This document shows, piece after piece, positions 6,510 to 25,428 of a DNA stretch of 64,000 nucleotides. How positions within the stretch are numbered: the first letter of the stretch is position 1; each line of letters opens with the position of its first letter. The stretch covers positions 1 through 64,000 of IMG/VR virus record IMGVR_UViG_3300018063_000001; one strand, written 5' to 3'. Both the position numbers and the translations under genes were made by a program. This DNA is from a virus. The notes under the pieces were generated by a model that saw only the letters and a list, made by a program, of their open reading frames with translations, did no database searches and was not told the origin of the DNA.

Positions 6510-6511
6510 AA

Positions 6512-8100: not shown

Positions 8101-8142
8101 GGGACAGTACACTATCTGGTTTACGCTGGATAACACTGTCCC
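8101..8142 (+). other. Second hairpin in the capsid-GT intergenic region
   Basis: GGGACAGT (8101-8108) pairs with ACTGTCCC (8135-8142). The loop is 26 nt. Confidence 0.4.
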
Positions 8143-8202
8143 ATATTTATTGACATCTATTTTCTGGATTCTCACCGCGATATACTTACAGGGTTACGGA
8201 AA

Positions 8203-8982
8203 GTGAGAGATTATACCACTTTCGCTTATGTCGTATTACACTACGGAGTCGACTACCTTCCCTACAGCTTGAAATCTATTTTCAATTTGGTAGATAGAAT
8301 CTATATCATGTATACGCCACATCCCTCACACGGCCATAGAACCGATGTCCAGCCGATTGAATCGAGAGAGGAATTACTATCGGCGGCTTATTCAGTTTAT
8401 GAATCGCATCATAGCAGTAAGATACACTGGCTTGAAACTGACTTCTGGAACGAAGGCCAGCAGCGTGACTATGCTGTGCAAACACTTATGAATGATGGCG
8501 CGGATTTAATTCTCGTTTTAGATTATGACGAAATCTGGCATGAGCATGTACTAGACAAAGCCTTGCGCCATGTATGGGATATGAATGGCGCGCGTAACTG
8601 GCTGATAAATTTCTCGCATCTTTGGCGCTCGTTTAATTATGTCTGCCATGACCAAAACTGGCCTGTTCGCATCATTGATACTCGCCACAGTGGGGGGACT
8701 GGCTATGTGCCTAAAGAGTTAGGTGACATCTATCATCTAGGATATGCTGTGACAGACAAGGTAATGCGTTATAAGTGGGAGTGCCATGGCCATAAAGATG
8801 AATTGCGCCCTAACTGGTTTGAGGAAAAGTGGCAAGCATGGCCTCCAGTAGATGACTGTCACCCGACGAATGGTAAGAATGATGAGGGTATAGGCTGGTG
8901 GAATCCGGTGGCGTTTGATAGGAGAGAGTTACCTTATGTTATGCATAGTCACCCATATTGGGATAAGGAGCGCATAGATTAA
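8203..8982 (+). CDS. Glycosyltransferase, GT-A / GT2-like
   Basis: GTG start. LILVLDYDEIW DxD-type motif after an N-terminal beta-alpha region. First gene of the glycan island. Confidence 0.5.
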   Translation: MRDYTTFAYVVLHYGVDYLPYSLKSIFNLVDRIYIMYTPHPSHGHRTDVQPIESREELLSAAYSVYESHHSSKIHWLETDFWNEGQQRDYAVQTLMNDGADLILVLDYDEIWHEHVLDKALRHVWDMNGARNWLINFSHLWRSFNYVCHDQNWPVRIIDTRHSGGTGYVPKELGDIYHLGYAVTDKVMRYKWECHGHKDELRPNWFEEKWQAWPPVDDCHPTNGKNDEGIGWWNPVAFDRRELPYVMHSHPYWDKERID

Positions 8983-9105
8983 ATGTACTGTATCTTGAGT
9001 GGATGCGGTTCGGCGGTGGCTAATGCCTTAGCGGTATTCATTTTAGTGCTATTATTTGTAGCACTACTCATATTGATTGACTCACAAACTAAAAGAAAGG
9101 ATTGA
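8983..9105 (+). CDS. Small membrane peptide (40 aa, 1 TM)
   Basis: ATG immediately follows the stop of the upstream gene. Hydrophobic core ALAVFILVLLFVALLILI. Confidence 0.35.
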   Translation: MYCILSGCGSAVANALAVFILVLLFVALLILIDSQTKRKD

Positions 9106-9270
9106 ATGATGACTGTTTTGCTACCTTTACTTTTTGTTCTAATCGGCGGATTAGCATACCTATTAGCAGCTAATCCAAAGTATCAATATCTTGGTCTGGT
9201 TACTTTCGGCTGTGGGTTGCTGGCGTTCCTGCTAACGGGTGGGCAACAAGTAGTGAGCTTGTTTCAATGA
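9106..9270 (+). CDS. Small membrane protein (54 aa, 2 TM)
   Basis: Two hydrophobic segments (LLPLLFVLIGGLAYLL, LGLVTFGCGLLAFLL). Stop overlaps the next ATG (ATGA). Confidence 0.4.
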   Translation: MMTVLLPLLFVLIGGLAYLLAANPKYQYLGLVTFGCGLLAFLLTGGQQVVSLFQ

Positions 9271-9470
9271 AGTGGGAATATAGTGTACTAAATTTAGAGG
9301 AAATGCAGAAGCAATTCCACGATTCCTTTAAATCAATGCTAGACGTAAACGGCGTGGAAGGATGGGAACTTGTCTCAGTAGACAACGGTATAGCCTACTT
9401 CAAGCGTCCTATTGTTGAGCCTATTGCTATGTTTAAGTTGGACTTCTCATATAAAGGTACTTACGAATGA
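9267..9470 (+). CDS. DUF4177-like small protein, paralogue 1
   Basis: MKWEY...GWELVSV...AYFKRP matches the DUF4177 pattern. Confidence 0.6.
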   Translation: MKWEYSVLNLEEMQKQFHDSFKSMLDVNGVEGWELVSVDNGIAYFKRPIVEPIAMFKLDFSYKGTYE

Positions 9471-9715
9471 AGTGGGAGTACTTTGTCAAGGATTTATACA
9501 GCGCAACTGATGCTGAAAGTCATATGAGCATTCTTAACCACTTTGGCAATCAGGGGTGGAGGCTTGTGCAAATATTGGACATTCCAAATGTGCGCTATGC
9601 TTTCTTTGAGCGGCCTCTACCTGAAGTATCAACCGGTGAAATAGATGCGCTTAACAAATATTACAAGGATAGAAGTTCATTAAGGAAAGATGCGAGAGCA
9701 TGGAAGAAAATATAA
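9467..9715 (+). CDS. DUF4177-like small protein, paralogue 2
   Basis: MKWEY...GWRLVQI...AFFERP. ATGA overlap with paralogue 1. Confidence 0.55.
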   Translation: MKWEYFVKDLYSATDAESHMSILNHFGNQGWRLVQILDIPNVRYAFFERPLPEVSTGEIDALNKYYKDRSSLRKDARAWKKI

Positions 9716-9984
9716 TCCCTATACCTTATATTCACGATGTAGTCTCATGGGAATGTAGAAGTAATACTGAGTGCATTGTAAAGCTAAATAAGCTCGTTAG
9801 TACAGGATGGGAGCTTATCACTATCTATAATGGCTTGGCTTATTTTAGGCGTGTCAATCCTGATTATATAACATTTGTCAATCGCGAGAATGATAGAATG
9901 CTAAAACGTAGGCGCTCTAAGTCCGAAGCTGAGATACTGGCACACTTCGACTATCCACAACAGGATAGAAGTTCGGAAGTATGA
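9700..9984 (+). CDS. DUF4177-like small protein, paralogue 3 (divergent)
   Basis: SWEC...GWELITIYNGLAYFRRV core with an extended C-terminus. Confidence 0.45.
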   Translation: MEENIIPIPYIHDVVSWECRSNTECIVKLNKLVSTGWELITIYNGLAYFRRVNPDYITFVNRENDRMLKRRRSKSEAEILAHFDYPQQDRSSEV

Positions 9985-10817
9985 ACATAACCTTCGTCCG
10001 TACGCGCCATGTTTATGATAGCTATATTGATTTTATACGCTTGGCGGAGCTTTCCGACTTCCCCTTAATCTATAGCGATGAGGTTGACATAGCTAAAGAG
10101 GGTGTTTACATATTCATAACCATGAACGGCGACGTGGAAACGCACCTTATGAACGAGGTTAATTCTAGCAATGTACGTTATGCTCACTTGATTCTGTGGA
10201 ATCTAGAACGGCCAAGTGGTTCCGCTGGTAGTGTAGGTAATTACGCCAAGCGCCATAGACAGCTTATGTATGACAGGATATTTGATGAGGTATGGTGTTC
10301 AGATCGCCGTCTGGCCGAAGAAACTCAACTCCGCTTTGTCGTTCTAGGCAGCGATGAAGGACTCGGCAGTCCCGGTGATGAAAAGTTCTATGATTTTTGT
10401 CACATGTCCTATATTATACCCCGGCGCTCTAATGTCTATGCCAAATTCAATCCAGACCGCATCGGCCCTAACTGCTGGCCTCCAGAGCGTGATGAGGTGT
10501 TACGACACTCCAAGTTTGCACTTAACATTCATCAGGATATACACCCGTTTCAGGAACCACTACGCCTAGCCCTATTCGCTGCTTATGGCCTACCCGTTAT
10601 CAGTGAGACTATCTTTGACGCTTACCCATGGGATTCTGACATAGCTATATTTAGCGGGTATGACAGTATTGTGAGCCGGGTTAAGCAGGTGCTAGATGAA
10701 CCGTATGAAGTGTATAAGGAGATGGGATTGAGGGCGAGGGAGAAGATGACGCGAGATTACCAATTCGGCAAAGTGGTTAAACAGGCGGTTAGTGAAAGTT
10801 TGGACAATTGGCGATGA
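9981..10817 (+). CDS. Glycosyltransferase-like protein (GT-B / CgeB-like), paralogue A
   Basis: Clear paralogue of 18557..19372 (shared LERP, FDEVW.SD, GPNCW, RD.VLRH.KF.L..HQD, EPLRLALFA.Y.LP.ISE). Also resembles the C-terminal half of 20894..22711. Confidence 0.5.
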   Translation: MNITFVRTRHVYDSYIDFIRLAELSDFPLIYSDEVDIAKEGVYIFITMNGDVETHLMNEVNSSNVRYAHLILWNLERPSGSAGSVGNYAKRHRQLMYDRIFDEVWCSDRRLAEETQLRFVVLGSDEGLGSPGDEKFYDFCHMSYIIPRRSNVYAKFNPDRIGPNCWPPERDEVLRHSKFALNIHQDIHPFQEPLRLALFAAYGLPVISETIFDAYPWDSDIAIFSGYDSIVSRVKQVLDEPYEVYKEMGLRAREKMTRDYQFGKVVKQAVSESLDNWR

Positions 10818-10954
10818 TTGAATCAAATCTGATTGCACTTATACTTGGCATTGGTACTGGCTTAGTGACTGGCAAGGTTGTTTCTCAATGGCTGCTTATA
10901 AGATATAAATCTCAGATTGATAGATTTCTTAGAGAGTTGGTAAATGAAGATTAG
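10814..10954 (+). CDS. Small membrane peptide (46 aa)
   Basis: ATGA overlap with the upstream stop. TM segment LIALILGIGTGLVTG. Confidence 0.35.
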   Translation: MIESNLIALILGIGTGLVTGKVVSQWLLIRYKSQIDRFLRELVNED

Positions 10955-11675
10955 CGGCTTTACATTTGGACACGACCTAATTTCCGGTGGCTATCCATTC
11001 TGCGAATCCATTCAAGCCGTCCGGCCCTATGTCGATGAAATCATAGCTGTTGATATTGAATCTACCGATGGCACATTTAGAGTCCTTGATCTGCTATGCG
11101 ATAAGGTACTCACCTCAACCTGGGATGGTAGAGATACCACACCACGCGCATTTATGAAGCATGTCGAATGTAAGGGTGATATTATCATCTTCTTTGAGGC
11201 TGATGAGGTATATGACGATAGCTTGCTGAGTGAGGCGCTATGGGCCATCGAGAGAGGGTATAATCACATCGGCGTATGGCGGTTGCAGATTGAATGTAAC
11301 TTTCAAAAAGTGAGACAATATCCGATTCCCGTGCATCGTATCTTTCCTAAAGGTGAAGGGAGTTACCACATTCATCCGACTAACTTACCGGACTTTCCAG
11401 TTCATATCCTATCACCAAGCGCGGGTTATCTATGGGATTGCTCAGGATGCTTCCGCGATTCGTGGTTTGCACGTAAGCGGAATCAAGCTGAAATATGGGG
11501 GGAGCCACGTAGCTTGATGGTAGCAGAACACTTCACCGAACCAACTGAGATAAGCAGGATTGAGGAAGAGAACAGGTTGAATCAACCCTGTTGGCAATGG
11601 ACAAATACACCGTTAAATATTCCTTCGATTCTGATTCCGTTGGTTGGTAAAGTACGCTATCAGGTAAATATTTAG
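10944..11675 (+). CDS. Glycosyltransferase, GT2-like
   Basis: N-terminal FTFG...ESIQAV...IAVDIESTDGT and IIFFEADEVYDD (DxD-type). Paralogous in layout to 14871..15788. Confidence 0.55.
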   Translation: MKISGFTFGHDLISGGYPFCESIQAVRPYVDEIIAVDIESTDGTFRVLDLLCDKVLTSTWDGRDTTPRAFMKHVECKGDIIIFFEADEVYDDSLLSEALWAIERGYNHIGVWRLQIECNFQKVRQYPIPVHRIFPKGEGSYHIHPTNLPDFPVHILSPSAGYLWDCSGCFRDSWFARKRNQAEIWGEPRSLMVAEHFTEPTEISRIEEENRLNQPCWQWTNTPLNIPSILIPLVGKVRYQVNI

Positions 11676-11676
11676 T

Positions 11677-11850
11677 ATGTTGAATAATCTCCGTGATAGG
11701 TGGATTGAGTTTGTCATAACGTATATACTCATTTTTGCTGTTGTATTTTGTGCTTGCGGTAAAGATGTTAAAATGGGAATTATCTGGGCAATAATAATAG
11801 CATCAGTTAATGGCCTAATTCTTCTGTACAGGATAAAAAACGATATATGA
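11677..11850 (+). CDS. Small membrane protein (57 aa, 2 TM)
   Basis: Hydrophobic segments FVITYILIFAVVFCAC and IIWAIIIASVNGLILL. ATGA overlap with the HNH gene. Confidence 0.4.
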   Translation: MLNNLRDRWIEFVITYILIFAVVFCACGKDVKMGIIWAIIIASVNGLILLYRIKNDI

Positions 11851-12197
11851 AATGGGGCGCATACTATCGCCAGTCACCCAAAACTGTCCAGTATCGCATC
11901 CACAAACGCCGCACTCAATCAATCGGCTACTTCACGTCTGAACAGTGGCAAACGCTATGCGCCTTATTTGATGGCAAATGTGCGAGGTGTGGGAAGAAGG
12001 GGTACTTGTCGCCAGACCATATCATACCGGCTAGTAGGGGAGGGAGTACGTGGATTATCAATATTCAATGTCTCTGTTCTGGTTGTAACATTCGCAAAAG
12101 TAACATCTATACTACTGACTATCGGCCTGAGCATGTCAAGGAATGGGCTAGACAGGAAATGATAAAGATGGGAATTGAAAATGAATTGGCTAAATAA
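11847..12197 (+). CDS. HNH endonuclease
   Basis: CARCGKKGYLSPDHIIPASRGGS...CLCSGCNIRKSN is a classic HNH/zinc-finger motif. Confidence 0.8.
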   Translation: MKWGAYYRQSPKTVQYRIHKRRTQSIGYFTSEQWQTLCALFDGKCARCGKKGYLSPDHIIPASRGGSTWIINIQCLCSGCNIRKSNIYTTDYRPEHVKEWARQEMIKMGIENELAK

Positions 12198-12411
12198 CTT
12201 TGACGAAAGACAACGGAAGGAAATTGAGTTCAGTATCGTTTACCTAAACCAATTTGAACATGGCACAGATGGACATAATGCAAAGGTTATCATTGCTAAG
12301 ATGGCTGATATGTTAAACAAGATTCACTATGCGCTTGCCCCTATCGGCGGCGATGCCGTGTTTGCCATAGCATCTAGGGATAAGATTGCTAAAATTATGG
12401 GATTTGAATGA
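12175..12411 (+). CDS. Hypothetical protein
   Basis: In-operon ORF overlapping both neighbours. No motif. Confidence 0.45.
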   Translation: MKMNWLNNFDERQRKEIEFSIVYLNQFEHGTDGHNAKVIIAKMADMLNKIHYALAPIGGDAVFAIASRDKIAKIMGFE

Positions 12412-12713
12412 CAATTACAAAGCAAACTACGTTAAAATGCAATCATTGTAAAAAGGTAGCATCCTTTATAGGAGAACGACCTGAATTACCCGGCCCATTT
12501 CATATCGAAGGACTATCGCCACCTAACCCACCAAGAAACTGGTATAGGATTGACCCAAACTATATAAATAGTATTTGGATGTCAAGTGATTTTGTAGTCG
12601 GTGGTGATTTCTGCTCACCCGAATGTATGCGAGATTATATCATAGAGAAGATTGGCGAGCGTGATAATCCTAAGCCTATGTGGGCTGGTGGTTTGTTTTC
12701 CAAGGTTAAATGA
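12408..12713 (+). CDS. Hypothetical Cys-containing protein
   Basis: ATGA overlap with the upstream gene. CNHC...CSPEC pairs suggest zinc binding. Confidence 0.45.
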   Translation: MTITKQTTLKCNHCKKVASFIGERPELPGPFHIEGLSPPNPPRNWYRIDPNYINSIWMSSDFVVGGDFCSPECMRDYIIEKIGERDNPKPMWAGGLFSKVK

Positions 12714-12858
12714 GTATCATTCTTTATCTATGCTAGAATCAACGGTAAGAATTACAAAGCCTTGCGTCATGTTGGCAGCTTGCTAGTTGAGTCATTAGAT
12801 TCTAACGATGAAGTAACTGAAGAAGTTTAAACTGTTTTAATATTCTAAACTATAAACT

Positions 12859-13587
12859 ATGCCTACAGTCACATTAGCGACTCATTGCCATGCCCGTGAC
12901 TTACCACGACTCCATGCGCCGGGTGTTTTGGAAGAGTTGATAAGCTGCCACGGATTCCCATTTGATGAAATACTTGTCATTCATCAGCGGTGCGGAGAAG
13001 CAACAACGGCATTTCGGCCTTACCCATCGGGTGTTGTAGTATTTAGTATTGAGGATGAAAACTATCCAGATATTTTAGGTTCATTCGGCATACCTCACAA
13101 GGACCCTACTGGAATCGAATTAACTCATGGATGGGATGCGCCGCACTATTATGAACATCACTGCGTAAATCATTGCAAAGAAATTATTGCGGCTCAATCT
13201 GATTACATCGTATTTACTGATGCTGATTGCTGCATCGTAGCCCAGCCCGATAGTTGGATAACTAAAGGGATTGAGATGCTCGAAAAGTATCCTGAAGCTT
13301 TTATTGTAGCACCAAGCGATGGCGGGCATGAGTTTAACTTTATGGCCGATGGTTGTCGGTTTACTCAAACGGTTAGCCAGCAAATATTTATGGGAAGGAC
13401 TAAGCAACTTAAGGTATTGGACTTCACTGACCTGCAATGGGATGGTAAGTTTGATGCACCTTATGGGCCATTTCAAGAATTTTATATGTTATTTGAGGGT
13501 TGGATGTTTCGGCATATGAGGGCTAATGGTTTGTATAGGGCTGTGCTACCTGAGGCTTATCGCTACTGGCACCTGGCTTACCACTGA
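12859..13587 (+). CDS. Glycosyltransferase-like protein (GT-A-like)
   Basis: YIVFTDADCCIV DxD-type motif after an N-terminal beta-alpha region. Lies in the glycan island. Confidence 0.4.
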   Translation: MPTVTLATHCHARDLPRLHAPGVLEELISCHGFPFDEILVIHQRCGEATTAFRPYPSGVVVFSIEDENYPDILGSFGIPHKDPTGIELTHGWDAPHYYEHHCVNHCKEIIAAQSDYIVFTDADCCIVAQPDSWITKGIEMLEKYPEAFIVAPSDGGHEFNFMADGCRFTQTVSQQIFMGRTKQLKVLDFTDLQWDGKFDAPYGPFQEFYMLFEGWMFRHMRANGLYRAVLPEAYRYWHLAYH

Positions 13588-13763
13588 TGAAAGTCGGCCA
13601 AATATTTGACCTACCCCCTGACATCCTCTACCCGCTCGGTCACATCGGCAAGCTAAAGGATGCTACTGAGACCAAGCTCATGGGTAAATATGAAGTGATA
13701 GAAGTCGAAGGCAAGTTAAAGGGTAGGGTTATTGTGACGTATGGACATAAGAGGCATAGGTGA
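13587..13763 (+). CDS. Small hypothetical protein (58 aa)
   Basis: Start overlaps the upstream TGA and its stop overlaps the GTG of the next gene. Confidence 0.35.
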   Translation: MKVGQIFDLPPDILYPLGHIGKLKDATETKLMGKYEVIEVEGKLKGRVIVTYGHKRHR

Positions 13764-14620
13764 AGGTACTTCTAACAGGCGGTTCAGGCTTACTCGGTAA
13801 GGCGCTTACGGAATCGTGTCCTGATAATATTGACTTAAACTCAACTTGGTTCACGCGCTATATACCTGCTTGCACTTATCTAATGGATGTGCGCAATGCA
13901 TCCCAAGTAGCCTATGTGTTTGAACAGGCTAAGCCCGATGTTGTTATTCATTGCGCTGCCGTTGGCAGTGTGGATTATACCGAATCCCACTTCACCGAAA
14001 CACGCAATGTCAATGTACTGGGTACTGAGAATGTGCTAAAAGCAGCGCAGGACGCTAAAGCCTTATTCGTGTATATTAGCACTAACGCCGTATTCGATGG
14101 CAGCGCACCGCCGTATGATGAGGCACGGGATAGACAACCGGTAAACAGATACGGCAGCATCAAAAGGGAAGCTGAGAACATTGTTATGGCAAGTCGCGAC
14201 TGGCTTATCATTCGGCCTTTTATGCTTTACGGCTATCCATATCCAGGTGGTAGAGGTAACTGGTTCACGGCGATTCTATCTCTCTTAAGCGGAGGTGAGA
14301 CGGCCAGGCTAGTTGATGATACCTATTGGCAACCGTCACTGGCTTGGGATGTGGCACAGGCTATCTGGCGATTGATAGAACTGGGTAAGCGAGACGAGGT
14401 GTACCATGTGGCCGGCGACGAAAGATTAACCCTATTCTGGTTTGGTATGATGATTGCTAGATTGTGGGGTTATAGTTCTGACTTGATTGTACCTATTTCG
14501 AGTAGTAGCTTAAAGGGTATAGCGCCACGGCCTAGAGATACGACGTTTAAGCTGGATAAGATACACGAATTAGGGATTCAGTTGAGAAGTGTAGAGGAAG
14601 GGCTAAAGGTGCTAAAGTGA
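13760..14620 (+). CDS. rmlD: dTDP-4-dehydrorhamnose reductase-like SDR (RmlD family)
   Basis: KVLLTGGSGLLGKAL Rossmann motif, YGSIK (YxxxK) catalytic pair, 286 aa as is typical of RmlD. GTG start. Confidence 0.6.
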   Translation: MKVLLTGGSGLLGKALTESCPDNIDLNSTWFTRYIPACTYLMDVRNASQVAYVFEQAKPDVVIHCAAVGSVDYTESHFTETRNVNVLGTENVLKAAQDAKALFVYISTNAVFDGSAPPYDEARDRQPVNRYGSIKREAENIVMASRDWLIIRPFMLYGYPYPGGRGNWFTAILSLLSGGETARLVDDTYWQPSLAWDVAQAIWRLIELGKRDEVYHVAGDERLTLFWFGMMIARLWGYSSDLIVPISSSSLKGIAPRPRDTTFKLDKIHELGIQLRSVEEGLKVLK

Positions 14621-14874
14621 AAGTACTAGGTAGGACACTGGAGGGTGGTAATATCATTGAACTAAGCCCCCAGGAGGTTTCACTGCTTATTGAGTTACAG
14701 GACGCTATAGAAGGTGCTAGTTGGATACCCGGCCCGCCTCGCCAGTATCCAGCTGATGGTAATTTGGATAGGATATTTCTAGCTATTATCCACTTTGTTA
14801 ATACTAAGTTTGCTATAAATAGTCTAAAAATATTAGTAGATGAACTTAACGAAAAGGTAACAGGTGAGAAGTGA
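14617..14874 (+). CDS. Hypothetical protein
   Basis: GTGA overlaps on both sides. No motif. Confidence 0.45.
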   Translation: MKVLGRTLEGGNIIELSPQEVSLLIELQDAIEGASWIPGPPRQYPADGNLDRIFLAIIHFVNTKFAINSLKILVDELNEKVTGEK

Positions 14875-16574: not shown

Positions 16575-16576
16575 CT

Positions 16577-18012: not shown

Positions 18013-18560
18013 ACCTTAAACGCCTAGTCAATAAAACCGTTAAATCCAAGCCGCTCCCTTCCTTATCATGGCTATATGGCGACTACTACTCGCCTTATTA
18101 TAGCCTTATGTACCTTCTAGCTGGCACGATTCAGGATGGCTTGCTAGTTGAGTTGGGTGTAGAGAAGGGACGTGGATTAGCCTCGCTAGCAGCGGCTAAC
18201 CGTAGTAACTGGGTTGTTGGTTTAGATACTACCTGGTGGGATGGGTTAGGAAGCGTTATAAATATGTTTCCTAACGTGTGGTTCCTGAATGAGCCTAGTA
18301 TGCCTGTACCATCTTACATTAGTGAATATTTCCGAAAGATTAACCTTCTTCACATCGACACCGAACACTCCTACTCTATGGCTAAGGCTGAATTTGAAGC
18401 ATATCAACCCTATCTGGCTAAAGGTGCTTATGTCTTATTTGACGATTTGCACGCTATCGAGGATGAGGTATTGACTTACTTTAACGAGTTACCTTACGAG
18501 AAAATACAGGATGATAGGTTACATCCTAGTTGTGGGTATGGGGTGATGATTTACGAATGA
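18009..18560 (+). CDS. Class I SAM-dependent methyltransferase (CmcI-like), copy 2
   Basis: LLVELGVEKGRGLASLA, VVGLDT, LLHIDTEHSY, VLFDDL. Same motif order as 17135 and 20137. Confidence 0.6.
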   Translation: MNLKRLVNKTVKSKPLPSLSWLYGDYYSPYYSLMYLLAGTIQDGLLVELGVEKGRGLASLAAANRSNWVVGLDTTWWDGLGSVINMFPNVWFLNEPSMPVPSYISEYFRKINLLHIDTEHSYSMAKAEFEAYQPYLAKGAYVLFDDLHAIEDEVLTYFNELPYEKIQDDRLHPSCGYGVMIYE

Positions 18561-19372
18561 GTCTTTGGCATACTACTTTAGATATTGTTTTTGTTAAGCC
18601 TAGATATTATTATCAGAGCTATACCGACTTTTGGGAGCTAGTTAGATTATCCAATTTCCGACAATGCTATATTGACCAGATTGACTTGAAGAGTAGTGAT
18701 ACCTACATCATAACAATGGTTGACCCCAAGCGCGATAAATGGCACTTATCATGGTGGCAGAAGCGACGTAAGCAAGCAAGACTTATCTTTTGGGACCTGG
18801 AACGGCCTAAGCCTAGAGGTGGTGTAGAAGCTGATAAGAGGTTTTTAGACAGACAAAACTTTGATGAAGTTTGGCATAGTGATTATCAATTAGCTAAAGA
18901 GCTAGGTACTAGATACGTCATTCTAGGCTCTGATGTTAGGTTAGGAAATGAACCAGCGATTAAGAAAAAGTATGACGTTGCTCATATGAGTTTTACCAAC
19001 GATAGACGGCGTAATTTACTGGACAGGATAAAGGTGAAGATAGGGCCGAATTGTTGGGGTAAAAAGAGAGATAAGGTACTTCGTCATGCTAAATTTGGCC
19101 TAACCGTTCATCAGGACGACGATTTCTATATTGAACCTTTGCGGCTGGCCTTATTTGCAAGCTATGAGTTGCCAATTATCTCTGAGAGGTCTTATAGTCT
19201 CTTTCCATTAAGTGATATTATGCTACAGACCACTTATAGCAATTTGGTATCCTTTGTGCCTGAGTGTGTTGAGGATTATTCTAGTCTGAAAGAATTGGGT
19301 AAAGAGATAAAACAACGTTTATGCGTTGATTATCAATTTGGCAATGTAGTTAGATATACGGTGAGGAATTGA
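18557..19372 (+). CDS. Glycosyltransferase-like protein (GT-B / CgeB-like), paralogue B
   Basis: Paralogue of 9981..10817. ATG at 18557 forms an ATGA overlap with the upstream stop. Confidence 0.5.
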   Translation: MSLWHTTLDIVFVKPRYYYQSYTDFWELVRLSNFRQCYIDQIDLKSSDTYIITMVDPKRDKWHLSWWQKRRKQARLIFWDLERPKPRGGVEADKRFLDRQNFDEVWHSDYQLAKELGTRYVILGSDVRLGNEPAIKKKYDVAHMSFTNDRRRNLLDRIKVKIGPNCWGKKRDKVLRHAKFGLTVHQDDDFYIEPLRLALFASYELPIISERSYSLFPLSDIMLQTTYSNLVSFVPECVEDYSSLKELGKEIKQRLCVDYQFGNVVRYTVRN

Positions 19373-19947
19373 GTAACCCCTGGCTTCCCTATCTCGTAAC
19401 TGAATACATAAAACAACTTAAGCCCCAACGGGTATTCGAGTGGGGGAGTGGGGAGAGTACGCTGTTTTGGTTTGAGATAGGAGTACCTTATCTGAGGTCA
19501 GTAGAACATGACTCAGACTGGTACTTCAAAGTTGAGAAGCAACTAATTGAGTTACACACGCAGGGTTATCATTTAATACCTTTCGAGGATGGTACAATTG
19601 GCTCTAATCCTGCCAACCCTATCTACTACAAGAGCGCCTCAACTGAATTAGGTGAAGTCAATTTCAAGCGGTATGCCTCATTTATAGATGAGTTTGAAGG
19701 TAACAAATTTGACCTCATCCTCATAGACGGCATGGCCCGTGCATCCTGTCTCTACCATGCCGCAAGTCACGTTGCCGAAAACGGTTGCATAGTACTGGAT
19801 AATGCCGAACGAGAGTATTACATGCAAAATGTAGCTTTCTTATTTGAGGGATGGGAGCGGATATTGCTTGAGGGATACGGGCCGATATTGGATTATCAAT
19901 GGAAAACGCTGATATTGATAAATAAACGGAAGAGGCATTATGAGTAA
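19369..19947 (+). CDS. Class I SAM-dependent methyltransferase-like protein, copy 3 (different subfamily)
   Basis: VFEWGSGESTLFW (motif I), VEHD, LILIDGMAR, IVLDNAERE. TTG start overlaps the upstream stop. Confidence 0.5.
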   Translation: MSNPWLPYLVTEYIKQLKPQRVFEWGSGESTLFWFEIGVPYLRSVEHDSDWYFKVEKQLIELHTQGYHLIPFEDGTIGSNPANPIYYKSASTELGEVNFKRYASFIDEFEGNKFDLILIDGMARASCLYHAASHVAENGCIVLDNAEREYYMQNVAFLFEGWERILLEGYGPILDYQWKTLILINKRKRHYE

Positions 19948-20140
19948 CCTAGCTGAAACAAAAGCCATTGAATTATGGAAACGTTGTCTCAACCGACGCG
20001 GATTCCCGTATGCGATTGAAAGTCTAGGTATGGAGCGGTGTTTCTTTTGTGATAAATATGCTGGTATTCACGCGGAGAATTGCATTTATATCGCTGCTAA
20101 AGAACTCGTTAGCTTGGATGAAAAAGACGAATTAGGATGA
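19940..20140 (+). CDS. Hypothetical protein
   Basis: Overlaps both neighbours. No motif. Confidence 0.45.
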   Translation: MSNLAETKAIELWKRCLNRRGFPYAIESLGMERCFFCDKYAGIHAENCIYIAAKELVSLDEKDELG

Positions 20141-20697
20141 ATGAATTTACCTTACGCGCCCTAGCCCAGCAAGCCCTACTCGATTCTGTCTACCCCTCCC
20201 TCCTATTCCCTCCCTCGCCTTACTACCGCTTTCTCAAACGCCTGGCAGAACATCTACAGCCTGGCTTATCCGTTGTTCTCGGAGTTTGCGGCGGTGGATG
20301 CTGCTTGCACTTGGCACTAGGGAATCCGCAAGGCAGAGTTGTCGGTGTGGATTTCGCTTACGATCACGACGAACAGATAAAACACATCTATAGCGTGTGT
20401 CCCAACTTCACCTTCTGGCATGGCGATTCCGTATTCGATGTAGGCCAGATAGTCAGCGATTTTGGTAAGCCTCAAATTGTGTTTGTGGATACGACGCATA
20501 CCTACCATCAAACTATGACAGAGTTTAACACGTGGTGTGATTATCTGGCCGATGATTGGATTATGTGCTTTGATGATTTATTCAGGCCGGGTATGGAACA
20601 AGCGTGGAATGAATTACCAAGTCCAAAGGTGAGGCTTGATGCGTTGCATACAGGCGCGGAAGAAGGGGGAGGGTTTGGGGTGGTATGGACGAGTTAA
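20137..20697 (+). CDS. Class I SAM-dependent methyltransferase (CmcI-like), copy 4
   Basis: SVVLGVCGGGCCLHLA, VVGVDF, IVFVDTTHTY, IMCFDDL. Confidence 0.6.
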   Translation: MNEFTLRALAQQALLDSVYPSLLFPPSPYYRFLKRLAEHLQPGLSVVLGVCGGGCCLHLALGNPQGRVVGVDFAYDHDEQIKHIYSVCPNFTFWHGDSVFDVGQIVSDFGKPQIVFVDTTHTYHQTMTEFNTWCDYLADDWIMCFDDLFRPGMEQAWNELPSPKVRLDALHTGAEEGGGFGVVWTS

Positions 20698-20909
20698 GGC
20701 GAGAAAGTAACTTAGATGACTTAAAGGAATTAGATAATACTAAAGTATGGGTTGACCAAATGATAAGTGGCGACTTAAAAGAGGCTATTAACTTGTTCAT
20801 CTGGCGTTGGGGACATCCTCAATTGACATTAGCGCAAGCTGAGAAAATATCAGTAGATATGTTTAACATGCTAGCTGAGACATATACAGATAAATGGACA
20901 TCTCAATAG
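20685..20909 (+). CDS. Hypothetical protein
   Basis: Overlaps both neighbours. No motif. Confidence 0.45.
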   Translation: MDELRRESNLDDLKELDNTKVWVDQMISGDLKEAINLFIWRWGHPQLTLAQAEKISVDMFNMLAETYTDKWTSQ

Positions 20910-22711
20910 TAACCGGCACTTACAACCGACTCCGCTCCTTGCAACGCATGGTAAACTCTACTAGACGTTCATTCATTGGCTTGCACGGCCTCGCCTACCA
21001 GGTGGTAATCACGGATGGCGGCTCACAGGATGGCACTCAGGAATGGTGTTTAGCGCAACCTGATATACACCTGATAGAACACGGTAGCTTGCTAGGCGCT
21101 GTCAAGGCGTTTAACGATGGTGCGTTTGCTGCTAGTGGCGAGTATGTTATTCTGGCTAACGATGATATAGAGTTTGTAGGCGATTCTGTTTTAACTGCTT
21201 ATGTCTATATGCAAGCCAATAACGATTGTGGCATAGGGTGCTTCTACCAGAATCGCAATGGACGCGATTGGCATGTTGAGGAAATGCCGTGCGTAGATGA
21301 CGAGCAACAGGTATCACGGCCTTACGGTCAGGTGTGTATTGTTCCGCGCTGGTTAGGTGATTATGTCGGCTGGTGGTACAGGGAGAGTGATTATGAAAAT
21401 AGAGGAATTGAACCTAGATTAGAGAATGGTGTATGGACATACCTACATACCTATGGGGGCGATAATGAGCTATCGGCTAAAGTATATGAGTTGGGATTCA
21501 AGGTATCGCCTGTACCAAATGCTAAGATAGCCGATCATGAGTTACAGGATGATTTGCGTAAAATAAATAATTTGGGACATGGTGGTGATCCAAGGAAGTA
21601 TCGTGGTCATCATCCTGACTCGTGGAATTGGGGTAGACGTTGGAAACATATGGATATGTCACCTCAATACGTCGGCCCCATCGTTCGCCACTTTCCCCTA
21701 ATGGAGAATCCCACACCTAAAAAGCAGCGGGTAGTTTACCTGCCAATTTACGAGCAAGGATACCCCATTCAAAAGGAACAAAAGCGCGGCTTACGCGAGG
21801 CGCTAGCTAAAGTTGCTGTAGTGGCTGAGTATGATTATGTTTCGCGCTTTGCTGAGGTAGGTAAAGATAGGATGCTAATTGAGTTAAGGACGACTATAGA
21901 GAGAATCCAGCCAACTATCCTCCTAACTCAATTACACAACGGCACTGAGATAAACGCAACGGATATTCAGGCGCTTGGCAACAACTGGCCTGATATGAAG
22001 CGAGTCAATTGGAATGGCGATTTCTGGCCTGAGAACTTACTGAGTGAAGACGGTATCAAACTAGCTAAAGCTTTCAATCTACAACTAACGGTGAATCGAG
22101 ATGCGCTGGACAAGTACAAAACAATGGGTGTTATGGCTGAATATTGGCAGATTGGCTATGAGCCTGACGGTTTATGTGATGAAGTTCACGATTCTAGTGA
22201 TATTGTTTTTCTTGCCAGCGGTTATAGTAAGGCAAGGCAAGAACTTGTTAAGCAGTTACGCTCACTTAATCTCAGTTTTTCTCTCTACGGTAACGGCTGG
22301 CCTAAAGGCTGGACAAGCGGAGACACTTTATACAATTTTAGCGAAGGCTGTAGAATCTACCGAGGCGCAAAAATAAGCATCGGCGATTCCCAATGGCCTG
22401 ATACCGGCTTTGTGTCTAATCGCGTTTTTCAGGCTTTAGTTGCTGGCGGTTCAGCGTTGGCACATCAGTGGTTCAGGGATATGGATAAACTAGGCTTAGT
22501 CGATGGTGAGACGTGTATCATCTGGCGTGATTTTGCTGAGTTAGAAAAGAAGATTAGGTACTACCTTGCGCGCGAGAAAGAACGTAAGATTATAGCCGAT
22601 GCTGGTGAGAAGTTGGCACTTAAACGTCATTCGTTTGATGTGCGAGTACAGGAATTGCTAGGGATGTTGGATGGTGAGAAGGTGGCAATGGAGGATGGCT
22701 GGCGATGGTAA
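20894..22711 (+). CDS. Two-domain glycosyltransferase (N-terminal GT2, C-terminal GT-B / CgeB-like)
   Basis: ISIVTGTYNR...VVITDGGSQDGT...VILANDDIEF is a GT2 N-terminus. The C-terminal 200 aa (GNGWP...SNRVFQALVAGG...RHSFDVRV) resemble CgeB/GT1-type domains and the paralogues at 9981 and 18557. Confidence 0.65.
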   Translation: MDISIVTGTYNRLRSLQRMVNSTRRSFIGLHGLAYQVVITDGGSQDGTQEWCLAQPDIHLIEHGSLLGAVKAFNDGAFAASGEYVILANDDIEFVGDSVLTAYVYMQANNDCGIGCFYQNRNGRDWHVEEMPCVDDEQQVSRPYGQVCIVPRWLGDYVGWWYRESDYENRGIEPRLENGVWTYLHTYGGDNELSAKVYELGFKVSPVPNAKIADHELQDDLRKINNLGHGGDPRKYRGHHPDSWNWGRRWKHMDMSPQYVGPIVRHFPLMENPTPKKQRVVYLPIYEQGYPIQKEQKRGLREALAKVAVVAEYDYVSRFAEVGKDRMLIELRTTIERIQPTILLTQLHNGTEINATDIQALGNNWPDMKRVNWNGDFWPENLLSEDGIKLAKAFNLQLTVNRDALDKYKTMGVMAEYWQIGYEPDGLCDEVHDSSDIVFLASGYSKARQELVKQLRSLNLSFSLYGNGWPKGWTSGDTLYNFSEGCRIYRGAKISIGDSQWPDTGFVSNRVFQALVAGGSALAHQWFRDMDKLGLVDGETCIIWRDFAELEKKIRYYLAREKERKIIADAGEKLALKRHSFDVRVQELLGMLDGEKVAMEDGWRW

Positions 22712-22935
22712 TGAATTATGCAGTGTCGGTTCTGAAAAAGGCAGCTTATGAACTTGGTGGCGAAATCTTATCAGACCAAGCATTTGAGATACATGTTGAA
22801 TCGGCTGACGAAATCTCAAAAATGGCTTATCAGATATTAACTGGTAGTTTCACAGAAAAGGCCAAAGGCGAAAAGTTAGATAGATTCATTGAATTATTGA
22901 AAGCTATGAGCGTACTAAGTGAACATACCCAATAA
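22705..22935 (+). CDS. Hypothetical protein
   Basis: In-operon ORF. No motif. Confidence 0.45.
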   Translation: MVMNYAVSVLKKAAYELGGEILSDQAFEIHVESADEISKMAYQILTGSFTEKAKGEKLDRFIELLKAMSVLSEHTQ

Positions 22936-23356
22936 CCTCTACTATCAAATTATTTCATCCTTCCCTATCGCCTGCGTAGATGTAGCCATTATCGCCAGAG
23001 GCAGTGTCCTCCTAGTCAAGCGCAACGACCTACCCGCTAAAGGTGAATGGTGGTCTCCAGGTGGTAGGGTTTACAAAGGCGAGTTGATGAAGGAAACGGC
23101 TAAGCGTAAAGCATTAGAGGAAGTGGGAATCGAGTGTCACGTCGGGCCGATTATTCACACGGCTGAGACTATTTTTCCAGACGGGCCAAATGGGATTCCA
23201 GTTCACAGTATCAATTCGTGCTTTATGCTTTATCCTGTGGGTGATTTTACGGTTAGGCTAGACAGTCATCACGATTCGTATGAGTGGATTAACCATATTT
23301 ATGAAGGATTACACCCGTATGTGGTTAAGTGCTTATTAGGTGCGGGTATTGAATGA
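22919..23356 (+). CDS. Nudix hydrolase
   Basis: GGRVYKGELMKETAKRKALEEVGI matches the Nudix box Gx5Ex7REUxEExGU with a single E-to-K deviation. Confidence 0.8.
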   Translation: MNIPNNLYYQIISSFPIACVDVAIIARGSVLLVKRNDLPAKGEWWSPGGRVYKGELMKETAKRKALEEVGIECHVGPIIHTAETIFPDGPNGIPVHSINSCFMLYPVGDFTVRLDSHHDSYEWINHIYEGLHPYVVKCLLGAGIE

Positions 23357-23376
23357 TACTCGGTTAGGTGGTATAA

Positions 23377-23607
23377 TTGGTTAGCGGTGAATTTTTTGCA
23401 TCTTACCCGGCCAGAGAACAAGGGATATGGTGTTCAACCTGCCTAGAATCCACAGACCAAATTGCCGGCATAGTAGTTAATTATAGAGGCATCATTCGTG
23501 CTTATACGTGTAAGGTATGTCAATCCAGAACCTATGCCAAAGATGAAGATAATCCATTTGAGGAAATTAACGAAAAGTTAGATAAGATACTTCGTAAGTT
23601 TGGCTAA
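23377..23607 (+). CDS. Small Cys-rich protein
   Basis: CSTC...CKVC zinc-ribbon spacing. TTG/GTG-type start. Confidence 0.4.
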   Translation: MVSGEFFASYPAREQGIWCSTCLESTDQIAGIVVNYRGIIRAYTCKVCQSRTYAKDEDNPFEEINEKLDKILRKFG

Positions 23608-23631
23608 GATGTATAGCTAAAAACACCTAAT

Positions 23632-23689
23632 AAGCCTTTTCGTCATCTGACTAGCGGCGCAATCTCATAAGATTCGTCGCTTTTTGTTT
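23632..23689 (+). promoter_or_regulatory. Conserved leader cassette, copy 2
   Basis: AAGCCTTTTCGTCAT is identical to copy 3. Hairpin AGCGGCGCAATCT (23653-23665) pairs with AGATTCGTCGCT (23670-23681), followed by TTTTTGTTT. GGAG RBS and ATGCC at 23699. Confidence 0.6.
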
Positions 23690-23698
23690 GGAGTCAAC

Positions 23699-24301
23699 AT
23701 GCCTGACAAAGTAACAACCTATCAATCCGTAGAGTTCTCCCGCATGGAGTCGGGTCAGATTGAACGGGAACGCGCGGGTAATCGGGTACAATTAGAGGAT
23801 AATACTGGACAGCCCTATACGGCATTAAGTAGTTTACCTGTTGCTTCGCTCGCTTTAGGTGCGCTGACTGACTCAGAGGCATTGACTGGCAACGGCTCAA
23901 TGATTGCTTTACTCAAAGCATTGCGTAGCCTTACCACTGACCTAAAGTCTTTACTTGGTGGTACACTTACCACATCTGGAAATCTACAACCCAACGTATT
24001 CAAGCCACTTTCGGCGCTTGATATTTCATCGGAGGCTACACTTTGGACTCCAACAGCGGGTACAAAGTTTCGTCTAATGGGTGGATTGCTATCAGTCACA
24101 GGTGCGGCGGGTAGTGTGACCCTAAAAGATGGTAATAGCGGAGCAACTATATTCAGTATACCTAATGCGGTTGTTGGAACGGCTTTATCGTTTAATTTAG
24201 GTGATGGAATATTAAGCGCAGCGGCTAACAACAATCTAAGGGCATTAGGGGGAGCGTTGCAAATTATGAATGGGACGGTCTGGGGAAGAGAGAGCGCCTG
24301 A
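23699..24301 (+). CDS. Virion-associated hypothetical protein (beta-rich, Gly/Ala/Ser/Thr-rich)
   Basis: ATG at 23699 with a GGAG RBS is preferred over the TTG at 23684. Stop overlaps the start of a GT2 gene (TGATG). Confidence 0.45.
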   Translation: MPDKVTTYQSVEFSRMESGQIERERAGNRVQLEDNTGQPYTALSSLPVASLALGALTDSEALTGNGSMIALLKALRSLTTDLKSLLGGTLTTSGNLQPNVFKPLSALDISSEATLWTPTAGTKFRLMGGLLSVTGAAGSVTLKDGNSGATIFSIPNAVVGTALSFNLGDGILSAAANNNLRALGGALQIMNGTVWGRESA

Positions 24302-25428
24302 TGATTAGTATTATTACCCCTGCTTACATAGACACTATCGAAAAATTAGAATGGCTAAACGAGATGGTATCATCCGTTCGTGTCCAAACTATGACCGATT
24401 GGGAACTCATCATTATGGATGATACCTCACCTATGCCGATTAACTTACATGACTCTGACCCCAGAGTCCGCACCTTGCGAATGGTGAATCGTACTGGCCC
24501 GGCCCTATGCCGTAATACCGCCGTAGCTCTGGCTAGATACCAAGCTATCCTACCCATTGACGCTGATGACGTGTTACCATCAAATGAAGTCCTGAATAAG
24601 CTTTATCAAGCTTGGCTGGATGACCGAACAAAGATTGTGTATGGTGACTTGCAACGCCTAGAAGTATTTGAAGGTAATTGGCGACGTGGCAGGATACACG
24701 AATTACCTGAGTACAAATTCACGCGGCCTGATTTTGGTATAAACGGCACGGTGCTAGACCCGGCTGGTACTATACCCGTAACTGCCTTACACTCAATCGA
24801 ATGTCATCACAAGGCCGGTGGCTGGAAAGCTGAATTAGAGTTCGGTTTGGAAGATGTTGAGTATTGGGTAGCGGCCGGCAAGGGTGGCTGCTGCGGCAAG
24901 CACGTAGACATAATTGCGCTGCTTTATCGTAAGCATGAAGAGAGTCGTAGTTCTCTTCTCAGACGAAACAAACAAGAAACAAGCATGCGGAATCGCATCC
25001 GCCAGATGCATCAGGATGTATATGAAGGGAGATATCCCATGGGATGTTGCGGAGGTGGTGCGTCCTATGTACCACCCGAAAGTTATAATCAAGCAAATAT
25101 TTCAGCGCCACTTACTTTAGATATGTATCCAGCCAGTGAGAAGGTGTGGGTTGAATATGTCGGGAATCGGCAAGGTAGTTTTGGCGCGGTAGGGCAGTTT
25201 ACTAACGTTGCCTATACGGTAGACGGGCCGGGGCATAAGATAGAGGTACACGTTAGCGACTTGCCCAAGTTTAGACAGTCAGGACGTGGGATAGATTTCA
25301 AGGTAGGTGTACCAGCGCCTAATGGCTATGCGCCACCCGTTGTAACTGGCCCGAAACCGTTTGAGGCACAAGCGCCTGAGCTAGCACAGATTCTACAGTT
25401 GGATGAGGTGGCACTTGCTGGCAATTAA
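24301..25428 (+). CDS. Glycosyltransferase family 2 with C-terminal extension
   Basis: ISIITPAY...WELIIMDDTS...LPIDADDVL are GT2 hallmarks. Embedded among structural genes. Confidence 0.7.
   Translation: MISIITPAYIDTIEKLEWLNEMVSSVRVQTMTDWELIIMDDTSPMPINLHDSDPRVRTLRMVNRTGPALCRNTAVALARYQAILPIDADDVLPSNEVLNKLYQAWLDDRTKIVYGDLQRLEVFEGNWRRGRIHELPEYKFTRPDFGINGTVLDPAGTIPVTALHSIECHHKAGGWKAELEFGLEDVEYWVAAGKGGCCGKHVDIIALLYRKHEESRSSLLRRNKQETSMRNRIRQMHQDVYEGRYPMGCCGGGASYVPPESYNQANISAPLTLDMYPASEKVWVEYVGNRQGSFGAVGQFTNVAYTVDGPGHKIEVHVSDLPKFRQSGRGIDFKVGVPAPNGYAPPVVTGPKPFEAQAPELAQILQLDEVALAGN

Follow-up and report, generated by a model that had tools for sequence, protein, structure and literature searches.

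A 17.4-kb island of sugar-transfer and methylation genes between the capsid and neck genes of a metagenomic siphovirus, a candidate system for virion glycosylation

Introduction

What does a tailed phage decorate if it carries a large set of sugar enzymes among the genes for its own particle? The question is raised by IMG/VR virus record IMGVR_UViG_3300018063_000001, of which positions 1 to 64,000 (referred to here as the window) were analyzed. The window makes up most of a 74,128-bp metagenomic contig, with about 10 kb of the contig beyond it. Between the gene for the major capsid protein and the genes for the neck of the particle lies an island of genes for predicted glycosyltransferases (GTs), S-adenosylmethionine (SAM)-dependent methyltransferases (MTases) and nucleotide-sugar enzymes. 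We favor, with a probability of roughly 0.55, a role of this island in the late-expressed, direct cytoplasmic glycosylation of virion proteins, with remodeling of the host envelope as a serious rival explanation.

Phage-encoded glycosylation cassettes within structural operons are already known, and a few mycobacteriophages are the only phages for which such a role has so far been proven. New here are the scale of the locus (17.4 kb, about 23% of a siphovirus contig of about 74 kb), its clade-wide yet fast-diversifying nature, and an unannotated GT-A family that is tied to the capsid gene.

Results and Discussion

Overall organization of the locus

A single run of plus-strand genes extends from position 1 to about 40.2 kb of the window (Table 1; genes are named by the first coordinate given there). 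The island, from 8048 to 25428, holds 38 open reading frames (ORFs) of at least 40 amino acids (aa), all on the plus strand and mostly overlapping. Counted from the capsid gene to gene 25829, 31 of the 40 junctions overlap, and the widest intergenic gaps in the region are 111, 145 and 141 bp. These counts agree with an earlier, preliminary description of this DNA, which had reported about 40 co-oriented, mostly overlapping ORFs between the capsid and tail genes. In the island, sites that resemble promoters or terminators are about as frequent as in shuffled sequence, that is, as by chance, and are uninformative on operon structure.

The upstream boundary of the island is the capsid gene, which ends at 7936, as first described, and its identity is borne out by the HK97 fold of the modeled product. 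The AlphaFold2 (AF2) model, made from a 32-sequence alignment, has a predicted local distance difference test score (pLDDT) of 62.6. Its top Foldseek matches in the PDB are all phage capsid proteins or encapsulins, among them the capsid proteins of SU10, Sf14, Bas63 and HK97 (E 2e-9 to 5e-7). Homologs of this capsid protein form at least 177 clusters in metagenomes. The C-terminal tail (residues 441-474) is conserved and yet has low pLDDT. The protein contains 15 cysteines, 11 of them invariant over the 32 homologs, with a CGxC...C...C...C cluster at residues 99-120. Other proteins of the virion module are also rich in cysteine (12 in 25829-27031, 15 in 27765-29273, and 9 in 3338-3907), and the module could form disulfide- or metal-stabilized particles, or the cysteines could have a link to S-glycosylation.

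On the downstream side, the first conserved genes past the island (25829 to 29273) have syntenic orthologs, with 64-93% identity, in relatives L010-L014 and L021. They are followed by tail chaperone-like ORFs and then by the tape measure gene. Because the tape measure, Dit, Gp37-like and other tail genes follow the neck genes, the phage is a siphovirus, and the island truly lies between its capsid and tail genes. No Pfam match was found for the neck-region proteins at E values up to 1. Gene 27234 was considered as a tail-terminator relative and was rejected, as it has no detectable relation to the tail terminator of an unrelated phage (L022, see below).

Neither Megablast of the head genes and the island nor tblastn of the capsid and portal-position proteins found a match among 50,697 GenBank phage records. 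There are almost no PHROGs matches for the structural or island proteins. The virus is a tailed phage without a cultured relative.

The glycosyltransferases

Profile- and structure-based annotation upheld the GT fold for eight domains, five of the GT-A type and three of the PF13524/CgeB-like type, with gene 12859 as one putative addition, and the MTase fold for three proteins. All six DxD-type motifs that had been pointed out earlier are present, and they are invariant in the family alignments. Five of the six GT-A/GT2-like genes of the preliminary description stand (8203, 10944, 14871, the N-terminal part of 20894, and 24301). The sixth, 12859, is less certain: its Pfam match is below the cutoff, and neither a PDB profile search nor hhalign against the 8203 and 10944 families found a match. 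It is conserved in six relatives. None of the GT and MTase proteins has a transmembrane segment in a hydropathy scan.

The 8203 protein has no match in Pfam, PHROG or NCBIfam. Its AF2 model has a GT-A fold, with pLDDT of 93.5 and a predicted template modeling score of 0.91. The best Foldseek neighbors in the PDB are SunS/ThuS, SpsA, COLGALT1 and GalNAc-T2, and those in BFVD are phage proteins named 'Fringe-like' and 'GT family 17' together with a GT of Gordonia phage GMA2, with template modeling (TM) scores of 0.62-0.68. By hhalign, the 8203 family matches the profile of the 10944/14871 family with a probability of 95.5%. Clustered at 90% identity, it has 229 clusters, which lie on the same contigs as the capsid homologs; at 50% identity there are 331 representative clusters, of which 84 have E < 1e-30. 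It is a new, unannotated GT-A family without a Pfam model, and it is tied to the capsid gene. Members of the 8203 type also include fusions of 466-809 aa in which the domain is C-terminal (among P0330, P0349, P0358, P0411 and P0417), and a 32%-identical member on contig L026 lies within another cluster of epimerase and GT genes.

Genes 10944 and 14871 are paralogs (24% identity, blastp E 2e-18). In the PDB, their joint family profile matches GmaR best (E 9.8e-9), and then heparosan synthase, SpsA and SunS.

The CgeB-like domains had been described as three paralogs, and this was reduced to two paralogs and one further member of the same Pfam family. The match of 9981 has 30.6 bits, with the gathering cutoff of PF13524 at 25 bits. 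Gene 18530 has no Pfam match and is classed by its identity to 9981. The C-terminal domain of 20894 (residues 448-589) matches Glyco_trans_1_2 with 68.6 bits (E 7e-19) and has this Pfam family in common with the other two, with no direct link to the 9981/18530 family by hhalign. Orthologs of 9981, with 47-89% identity, are found in L001, L003, L004 and L006-L009. The counterpart of 18530 is absent from the closest relative, and L012 has no ortholog slot for it.

The N-terminal GT2 domain of the bifunctional 20894 protein covers residues 4-123 (E 9e-16), and orthologs of the protein in L012-L014 have 65-81% identity. When 185,579 species genomes were scanned with the 20894 family, the matches were limited to one 1.7-kb contig of an Anaerolineae metagenome-assembled genome (MAG), with 35% identity, and two weak N-terminal matches in Chloroflexia and Spartobacteria MAGs, which are too weak to name a host.

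The last gene of the island, 24301, has a GT2 core at residues 3-157 and a C-terminal domain that is invariant among its orthologs (53-87% identity). The core has a weak, generic 'GtrB-like' PHROG match (E 3e-4). The best NCBIfam neighbors of 24301, as well as of 20894, are transferases of exopolysaccharide (EPS), teichuronic acid and colanic acid. The C-terminal domain (about 145 aa, encoded by 24988-25428) has no Pfam match at E values up to 1, and could be an acceptor-recognition domain. It contains an invariant GCCGGG motif and a VWVEY...FTN...HKxEVHV block.

Methyltransferases and nucleotide-sugar enzymes

Three MTases are confirmed and one is probable, and there are three nucleotide-sugar enzymes (RmlC-like, RmlD-like and Nudix). 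The proteins 17114, 18009 and 20137 are mutual paralogs by blastp, and all score above the Methyltransf_24 cutoff; 17114 also passes the cutoff of RMNT_CmcI (PF04989). The substrate of these CmcI-like enzymes is probably a sugar, as judged from their family. Four class I SAM MTases had been proposed, and the fourth, 19369, is weaker: it has no Pfam or NCBIfam match, and the single match of its family profile is PDB entry 3cvo, a 'methyltransferase-like protein'.

The RmlD-like reductase (13760) and the Nudix hydrolase (22919) were both recognized correctly at the outset, as their Pfam matches demonstrate. The GxxGxxG and YxxxK motifs are visible in the 13760 protein. It scores 162 bits against the NCBIfam model rmlD, below the equivalog cutoff of 224 bits. 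The RmlC-like gene lies between the terminase gene and the putative portal gene, as it does in L001, L003, L007, L019 and L020; in L004 an RmlC-like gene is found inside the island instead. The product of 978 matches RmlC structures in the PDB (E 2e-9) and has 42.7 bits against NCBIfam rmlC, below the equivalog cutoff of 155.75 bits. The nearest relative of the Nudix protein is GDP-mannose mannosyl hydrolase, with an NCBIfam score of 42 bits, below the 146-bit cutoff.

The assignment of the sugar as rhamnose is not secure, because both the RmlD-like and the RmlC-like protein score below their equivalog cutoffs and because some relatives swap in a GDP-L-fucose-synthase-like gene. The product of 13760 could be another 6-deoxy-L-hexose. 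The proposal of a methylated, deoxyhexose-containing glycan therefore fits the inventory (8-9 GT domains, 3-4 MTases, and the RmlC- and RmlD-like proteins) without securing the identity of the sugar as rhamnose. The glycan had also been thought to be built largely autonomously by the phage, and this has to be given up. Pfam scans of the about 90 ORFs of the window (the window being shorter than the whole contig) turned up neither RmlA nor RmlB, nor any sugar-nucleotidyltransferase, and therefore the host must supply activated sugars and dTDP-4-keto-6-deoxyglucose.

Conservation and divergence of the island

The island was compared among 14 related contigs that span capsid identities of 96% to 56%. 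A homolog of 8203 is located downstream of the capsid gene in all 14. The usual order of the core is 8203-like, DUF4177-like, CgeB-like, GT2, 12859-like, RmlD, GT2, DUF1360, a run of Methyltransf_24 genes, the bifunctional GT2 and PF13524 gene, a variable slot, the terminal GT2 gene, and then the neck genes; most of the 14 contigs keep it. On this comparison, a large metagenomic siphovirus clade has the island as its conserved hallmark.

The closest relative is a 71.4-kb IMG/VR contig, in which the island has about 18.3 kb. Between the two phages, identities are 96% for the capsid protein, 92% for the terminase and 88% for the portal-position protein. They are 68% for 8203, 66% for the RmlC-like protein, 63-69% for 17114, and 37% for 12859. 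Between the bifunctional GT and the terminal GT2 lies a slot that holds the Nudix gene and 23684 in the window and in L021, the Nudix gene and other small genes in L012, and the GDP-L-fucose-synthase-like gene in L013 and L014. As far as these contigs tell, the island is kept as a whole and is mosaic in detail, and it diverges much faster than the capsid gene.

Virion proteins as the favored target

The closest documented system is found in phage Corndog, in which an O-MTase and three GTs are encoded inside the structural operon and are not components of the virion; in 2015, modification of the capsid was proposed as their role (PMC4351075). Cassettes of the type of Corndog (cluster O), Che8 and Myrna are recognized by phage GTs, with or without an O-MTase, within the string of virion structural genes. 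The same arrangement is seen here, with GT and O-MTase genes that follow the HK97 capsid gene and precede those for the neck and tail. According to papers that cite Freeman et al. 2023, in their accounts of that work, mycobacteriophage enzymes add glycans to the capsid and tail tube and reduce recognition by antibodies (PMC11600133, PMC12363180).

There are large differences in scale. The Corndog cassette consists of four genes between portal and protease, whereas the island has 38 ORFs in 17.4 kb between capsid and neck genes. It encodes 8-9 GT domains, 3-4 MTases and nucleotide-sugar tailoring enzymes. In tblastn of 20894 against the 50,697 phage records there was no actinophage match, and at most weak partial matches to cultured phages. 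The single resemblance found on the actinophage side is the fold-level match of 8203 to the GT of Gordonia phage GMA2 (TM score 0.62). We favor the view that the island would be an expanded analogue of the Corndog cassette.

The nearest characterized relatives of the island GTs act on proteins, peptides or spore coats (GmaR, SunS/ThuS, COLGALT1, GalNAc-T2, SpsA, and Fringe/GT17-like proteins). GmaR, from Listeria, is a flagellin O-GlcNAc transferase. By sequence or structure, the 10944/14871 and 8203 families match GmaR, SunS and ThuS best, but the E values and TM scores (0.37-0.48) speak for a shared GT-A core alone, and acceptor specificity is not transferable. Such neighbors are suggestive at most, the GT-A core being the common part.

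Two other systems have protein shells that carry glycans. Chlorovirus PBCV-1 encodes a cytoplasmic multi-GT system with methyltransferase activity, and its major capsid protein, Vp54, carries methylated, rhamnose-containing glycans. PBCV-1 is a giant virus of eukaryotes whose capsid has the double-jelly-roll fold, and its likeness to the island is functional only. In Bacillus spores, SpsA, CgeB, the SpsI-L rhamnose genes and exosporium methyl-rhamnose decorate a proteinaceous shell. The island shares with this spore-surface toolkit the families of SpsA-like GT-A enzymes (by Foldseek), PF13524/CgeB-like proteins, rhamnose-pathway enzymes and DUF1360. The toolkit is cellular, however, with no capsid, and the resemblance is at the level of families.

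The following sequence of events is proposed for the glycosylation of virion proteins. The island would be transcribed together with the head and tail genes, as suggested by its co-orientation, the overlapping ORFs and the lack of an excess of terminators. The host would provide activated sugars and dTDP-4-keto-6-deoxyglucose, and, with the chemistry taken from homology, the phage RmlC- and RmlD-like enzymes would convert the latter to a dTDP-6-deoxy-L-hexose, most likely L-rhamnose. The Gmm-like Nudix hydrolase would trim the GDP-sugar pools. The 8203 GT-A enzyme may then add the first sugar, and the 7-8 other soluble GT domains may extend the glycan, with roughly one linkage apiece. The three CmcI-like O-methyltransferases and the methyltransferase-like protein, whose families are established and whose substrates are presumed, would cap it. 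The capsid protein is the likely acceptor, possibly along with tail-tube or neck proteins. Exchange of island genes would equip related phages with different glycans, in the style of an O-antigen locus. The glycan may serve as a shield, or as a layer for adhesion or stability.

Within the capsid protein, the conserved tail at residues 441-474 is a candidate acceptor region, by analogy to mycobacteriophages, for which C-terminal glycan sites are described (PMC12619734, as quoted there from Freeman).

An extended form of this proposal can also be formulated. A widespread siphovirus lineage would have an O-antigen-like, fast-diversifying 'virion serotype locus', which would coat its capsids with strain-specific methylated deoxyhexose heteroglycans of up to about 8-9 sugars, made in the cytoplasm. 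These would be protein-linked, begun by the capsid-linked GT-A enzyme, and perhaps S-linked at some of the 11 invariant cysteines of the capsid protein, since the S-glycosyltransferases SunS and ThuS are top structural neighbors of 8203. In this complete form the proposal is unlikely; if true, no tailed phage would be known to have a more elaborate system for protein glycosylation.

Several observations weigh against a virion target. The acceptor cannot be read from GT-A and PF13524 folds. Solubility is a property also of most O-antigen and capsule transferases, which act on lipid-linked intermediates that host enzymes make. The conserved DUF1360 protein and the small membrane peptides of the island hint at membrane-associated chemistry. 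Moreover, the distant relatives, with contigs of 103-105 kb, carry unrelated cargo before the 8203-like gene in the same slot (homing endonucleases, an N6/N4 DNA methylase, an IS605 TnpB, and a Ro60/TROVE-like gene), which makes position weak evidence for function. A phosphatase-like gene is also found in this slot in distant relatives.

Alternative explanations

Remodeling of the host envelope is the most serious rival to the glycosylation of virion proteins, although we consider it rather unlikely. The soluble GTs would work at the inner membrane on undecaprenyl-linked intermediates of the host, together with the host priming enzyme, flippase and ligase. The resulting changes in lipopolysaccharide (LPS), capsule, S-layer or EPS during infection would block superinfection or the re-adsorption of progeny to debris. 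The solubility of most O-antigen transferases, the DUF1360 protein and membrane peptides, and the NCBIfam neighbors of 20894 and 24301 are all consistent with this possibility, as is the resemblance of the Nudix protein to Gmm/WcaH of the colanic acid pathway. There is also a precedent in a lytic tailed phage, the T4-like cyanophage P-SSM2, with large clusters of sugar genes like the island; its 24 sugar or 'LPS' genes, including epimerases, transferases and synthases, are hypothesized to act on host LPS (PMC1079782). The existence of these 24 genes also qualifies the earlier remark that the number of GTs and MTases is far beyond what is usual, which is fair for siphoviruses. On the other hand, P-SSM2 is a 252-kb myovirus with two clusters, which are not reported to be embedded between capsid and neck genes. 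These clusters are absent from the sister phage P-SSM4 and are not a hallmark of its clade, in contrast to the island.

The gene content of the window argues against an envelope target. Pfam and NCBIfam scans of its about 90 ORFs found no priming phosphoglycosyl transferase, membrane-embedded GT, GtrA/GtrB-type module or other Gtr-type membrane protein, Wzx flippase, Wzy polymerase, ligase or acetyltransferase, and no integrase. A capsid-profile scan of the 185,579 species genomes found no prophage copy of the capsid family. The locus thus differs from lysogenic conversion of the GtrABC, Oac or Wzy type, given its GTs without transmembrane segments and the lack of integrase and prophage copies. 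In addition, the genes are located in the late structural string rather than beside a lysogeny module, and the core GT-A enzyme (8203) is tied to the capsid gene throughout the clade.

A second alternative, which we regard as quite unlikely, is that the slot after the capsid gene is a permissive hot-spot for insertion, and that the sugar enzymes have several unrelated targets, or none in common. The cargo of the distant relatives described above points in this direction, as do the HNH endonuclease and the many orphan small ORFs of the island. Nonetheless, the ordered core of GT, RmlD, DUF1360 and MTase genes holds from 96% to about 60% capsid identity, and the set of enzymes is chemically coherent, with deoxyhexose synthesis, transfer and O-methylation.

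Finally, the decoration of hydroxymethylated phage bases by the GTs, as a protection against restriction, is highly improbable. Phage GT-A and GT-B enzymes akin to those for LPS and teichoic acid do glycosylate 5-hydroxymethylcytosine, with some clusters near structural genes, and such pathways are recognized by a GT next to a hydroxymethylase of the 5mYOX/TET or ThyS-like kind, optionally together with a C5-MTase (bioRxiv 10.1101/2023.12.21.572611). In that preprint, however, the reconstituted glycans are mono- to trisaccharides of hexose, N-acetylhexosamine or heptose, and neither deoxyhexose synthesis nor sugar O-methyltransferases are reported for these pathways. Pfam scans of the window ORFs, with about 10 kb of the contig lying beyond, found no 5mYOX/TET, thymidylate-synthase-like hydroxymethylase or C5-cytosine methyltransferase, and the sole DNA methylase in the window is of the N6/N4 type (41467-42945).

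Implications

If the target is the virion, capsid glycosylation would be a genome-shaping trait rather than an actinophage curiosity of one to four genes. It would be conserved throughout a large clade of environmental phages, and its diversification would be like that of a bacterial O-antigen locus. The question would then be what selects for variation in the glycans of phage particles outside animals. The glycans could protect against proteases or grazers, help particles adhere to exopolymers, mask them from host receptors or defense, or stabilize them. Whatever the target, the island is a source of compact, soluble GTs and sugar O-methyltransferases, some of them possibly protein-directed, for glycoengineering.

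Coordinates of the features

The RmlC-like gene (978-1451), the HNH gene (11847-12197), the three DUF4177-like genes, and the conservation of the island in relatives were not part of the preliminary description.

Table 1. Features of the island and of the flanking structural genes, in window coordinates
Position	Strand	Feature	Evidence or remark
137-859	+	Terminase large subunit nuclease domain	First in the string
978-1451	+	RmlC-like dTDP-4-dehydrorhamnose 3,5-epimerase	dTDP_sugar_isom E 9e-15, above cutoff; outside the range first described
After RmlC-like gene	+	Portal-position protein, 491 aa	No Pfam match at E up to 1
Between portal-position and capsid genes	+	Weak Mu-F-like protein, then 791-aa protein	791-aa protein without Pfam match at E up to 1
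6512-7936	+	Major capsid protein, HK97 fold, 474 aa	Upstream island boundary; candidate glycan acceptor
8203-8982	+	Clade-core GT-A glycosyltransferase, proposed initiator	Invariant D107xD109-E110
8983-9105, 9106-9270	+	Two tiny membrane peptides	
9267-9470, 9467-9715, 9700-9984	+	Three small DUF4177-like genes	Pfam E 4e-5, 3.5e-4, both below cutoff
9981-10817	+	PF13524 (Glyco_trans_1_2, CgeB-like) GT	Pfam E 3.7e-7
10808-10954, 11677-11850, 15763-15954	+	Further tiny membrane peptides	
10944-11675	+	GT2 (GT-A) glycosyltransferase	Pfam GT2 E 1.8e-6; invariant D87-E88
11847-12197	+	HNH homing endonuclease, mobile insert in the island	Pfam HNH E 8e-10
12859-13587	+	Putative GT-A-like protein	Invariant D121xD123; Pfam GT2 E 2e-3, below cutoff
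13760-14620	+	RmlD-like NAD(P)H-dependent 4-keto-6-deoxyhexose reductase	RmlD_sub_bind E 2.8e-51
14871-15788	+	GT2 (GT-A) glycosyltransferase, paralog of 10944	Pfam GT2 E 4e-4, below cutoff
16173-16574	+	DUF1360 integral membrane protein	Pfam E 2.6e-7; three transmembrane-like segments
17114-17794, likely start 17135	+	SAM MTase, CmcI/rhamnosyl O-methyltransferase-like	Methyltransf_24 E 2e-8; RMNT_CmcI E 1.3e-5
18009-18560	+	SAM MTase, CmcI-like	Methyltransf_24 E 1.3e-11
18530-19372, likely start 18557	+	Second CgeB-like GT	41% identity to 9981, E 5e-63
19369-19947	+	Methyltransferase-like protein, different family	EWGSGEST motif; PDB 3cvo E 1.8e-4
20137-20697	+	SAM MTase, CmcI-like	Methyltransf_24 E 3.7e-7
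20894-22711	+	Bifunctional GT, N-terminal GT2 and C-terminal PF13524	Pfam
22919-23356	+	Nudix hydrolase	NUDIX E 2e-14; PDB 1rya/2i8t E 5e-10
23684-24301	+	Accessory 205-aa protein, variable slot	C-terminal module of about 100 aa
24301-25428	+	Terminal GT2 glycosyltransferase	Pfam GT2 E 7e-18
25829-27031, 27234-27761, 27765-29273	+	First conserved genes past the island, downstream boundary	Synteny
27765-29273	+	BNR/sortilin propeller protein, 502 aa, tail-tube position	BNR and Sortilin Pfam matches
30737-34765	+	Tape measure	PhageMin_Tail, E 1e-35
34778-37357	+	Dit	
37382-39796	+	Gp37-like protein	

The 23684 protein and small proteins of the island

The terminal GT2 gene had been described as translationally coupled to the gene for a structural-type protein. 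The TGATG overlap with 23684 is real, and the structural character of its partner has indirect support. The 23684 protein has no Pfam match at E values up to 1. There are 17 homologs, and those looked up are located at the same slot in close members of the clade. Residues 103-203 have 52-53% identity to the C-termini of two longer proteins, P0269 and P0270. The gene for P0269, in an unrelated phage with an SU10-type capsid gene, comes directly after the tail-terminator gene and upstream of a large ORF of tape-measure size. This sharing indirectly supports an association of the C-terminal module with virions. The gene is missing from L012-L014, so it is, by its distribution, accessory, and a role as a core structural protein was rejected.

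The unrelated phage L022, on a 43-kb contig (JGI 3300048804), has an SU10-type capsid gene. It has 2-3 GT-like genes shortly downstream of the capsid gene, past one 99-aa ORF. These genes, at 1334-4255, have DxD motifs, a GT4-like motif and a faint Pfam GT2 match. A protein with the 23684-type C-terminal module is encoded in the tail-tube position (6001-6720). Transferase genes beside the capsid gene may be a wider pattern.

Several tiny membrane peptides had been reported for the island, and five small proteins with transmembrane-like segments were found, with values of 1.7-3.2 in Kyte-Doolittle windows of 19 residues. In L001, the 9106 and 15763 peptides are conserved with 95% and 94% identity, respectively. 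The DUF1360 protein is also present in the islands of L001, L006, L011 and L020. Two of the DUF4177-like genes, 9267 and 9700, are linked by blastp, and homologs are found in several relatives.

Mobile genes and other observations

There are four HNH endonucleases in the window (11847-12197, 51288-51896, 52990-53652, and 61616-62338). The clade is dense in selfish elements, and relatives (L015, L018 and L019) have GIY-YIG/NUMOD3 endonucleases after the capsid gene, a terminase intein in L018, and an IS605 TnpB and a Ro60/TROVE-vWA gene in L019. In L018, an ADPrib_exo_Tox gene (ADP-ribosyltransferase exotoxin-like, 6752-7093) is located between the portal-region genes and the large gene in the scaffold position.

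From about 40.3 to 53.7 kb of the window, the coding strand and the GC skew flip to a minus-strand block, and the plus strand is back at about 54 kb. This block encodes the N6/N4 DNA methylase mentioned above and an SNF2-type helicase (42924-44384). No tRNA genes are found in the window.

The BNR/sortilin-type β-propeller of 27765-29273 and a Rax2/DUF5122-type propeller in Dit may be carbohydrate-binding decorations of the tail. Between the portal-position and Mu-F-like genes, a 70-aa ORF (3139-3351) contains CRCGHSATKPFCDGKH, a possible signature of the CDGSH iron-sulfur domain, to judge by the motif.

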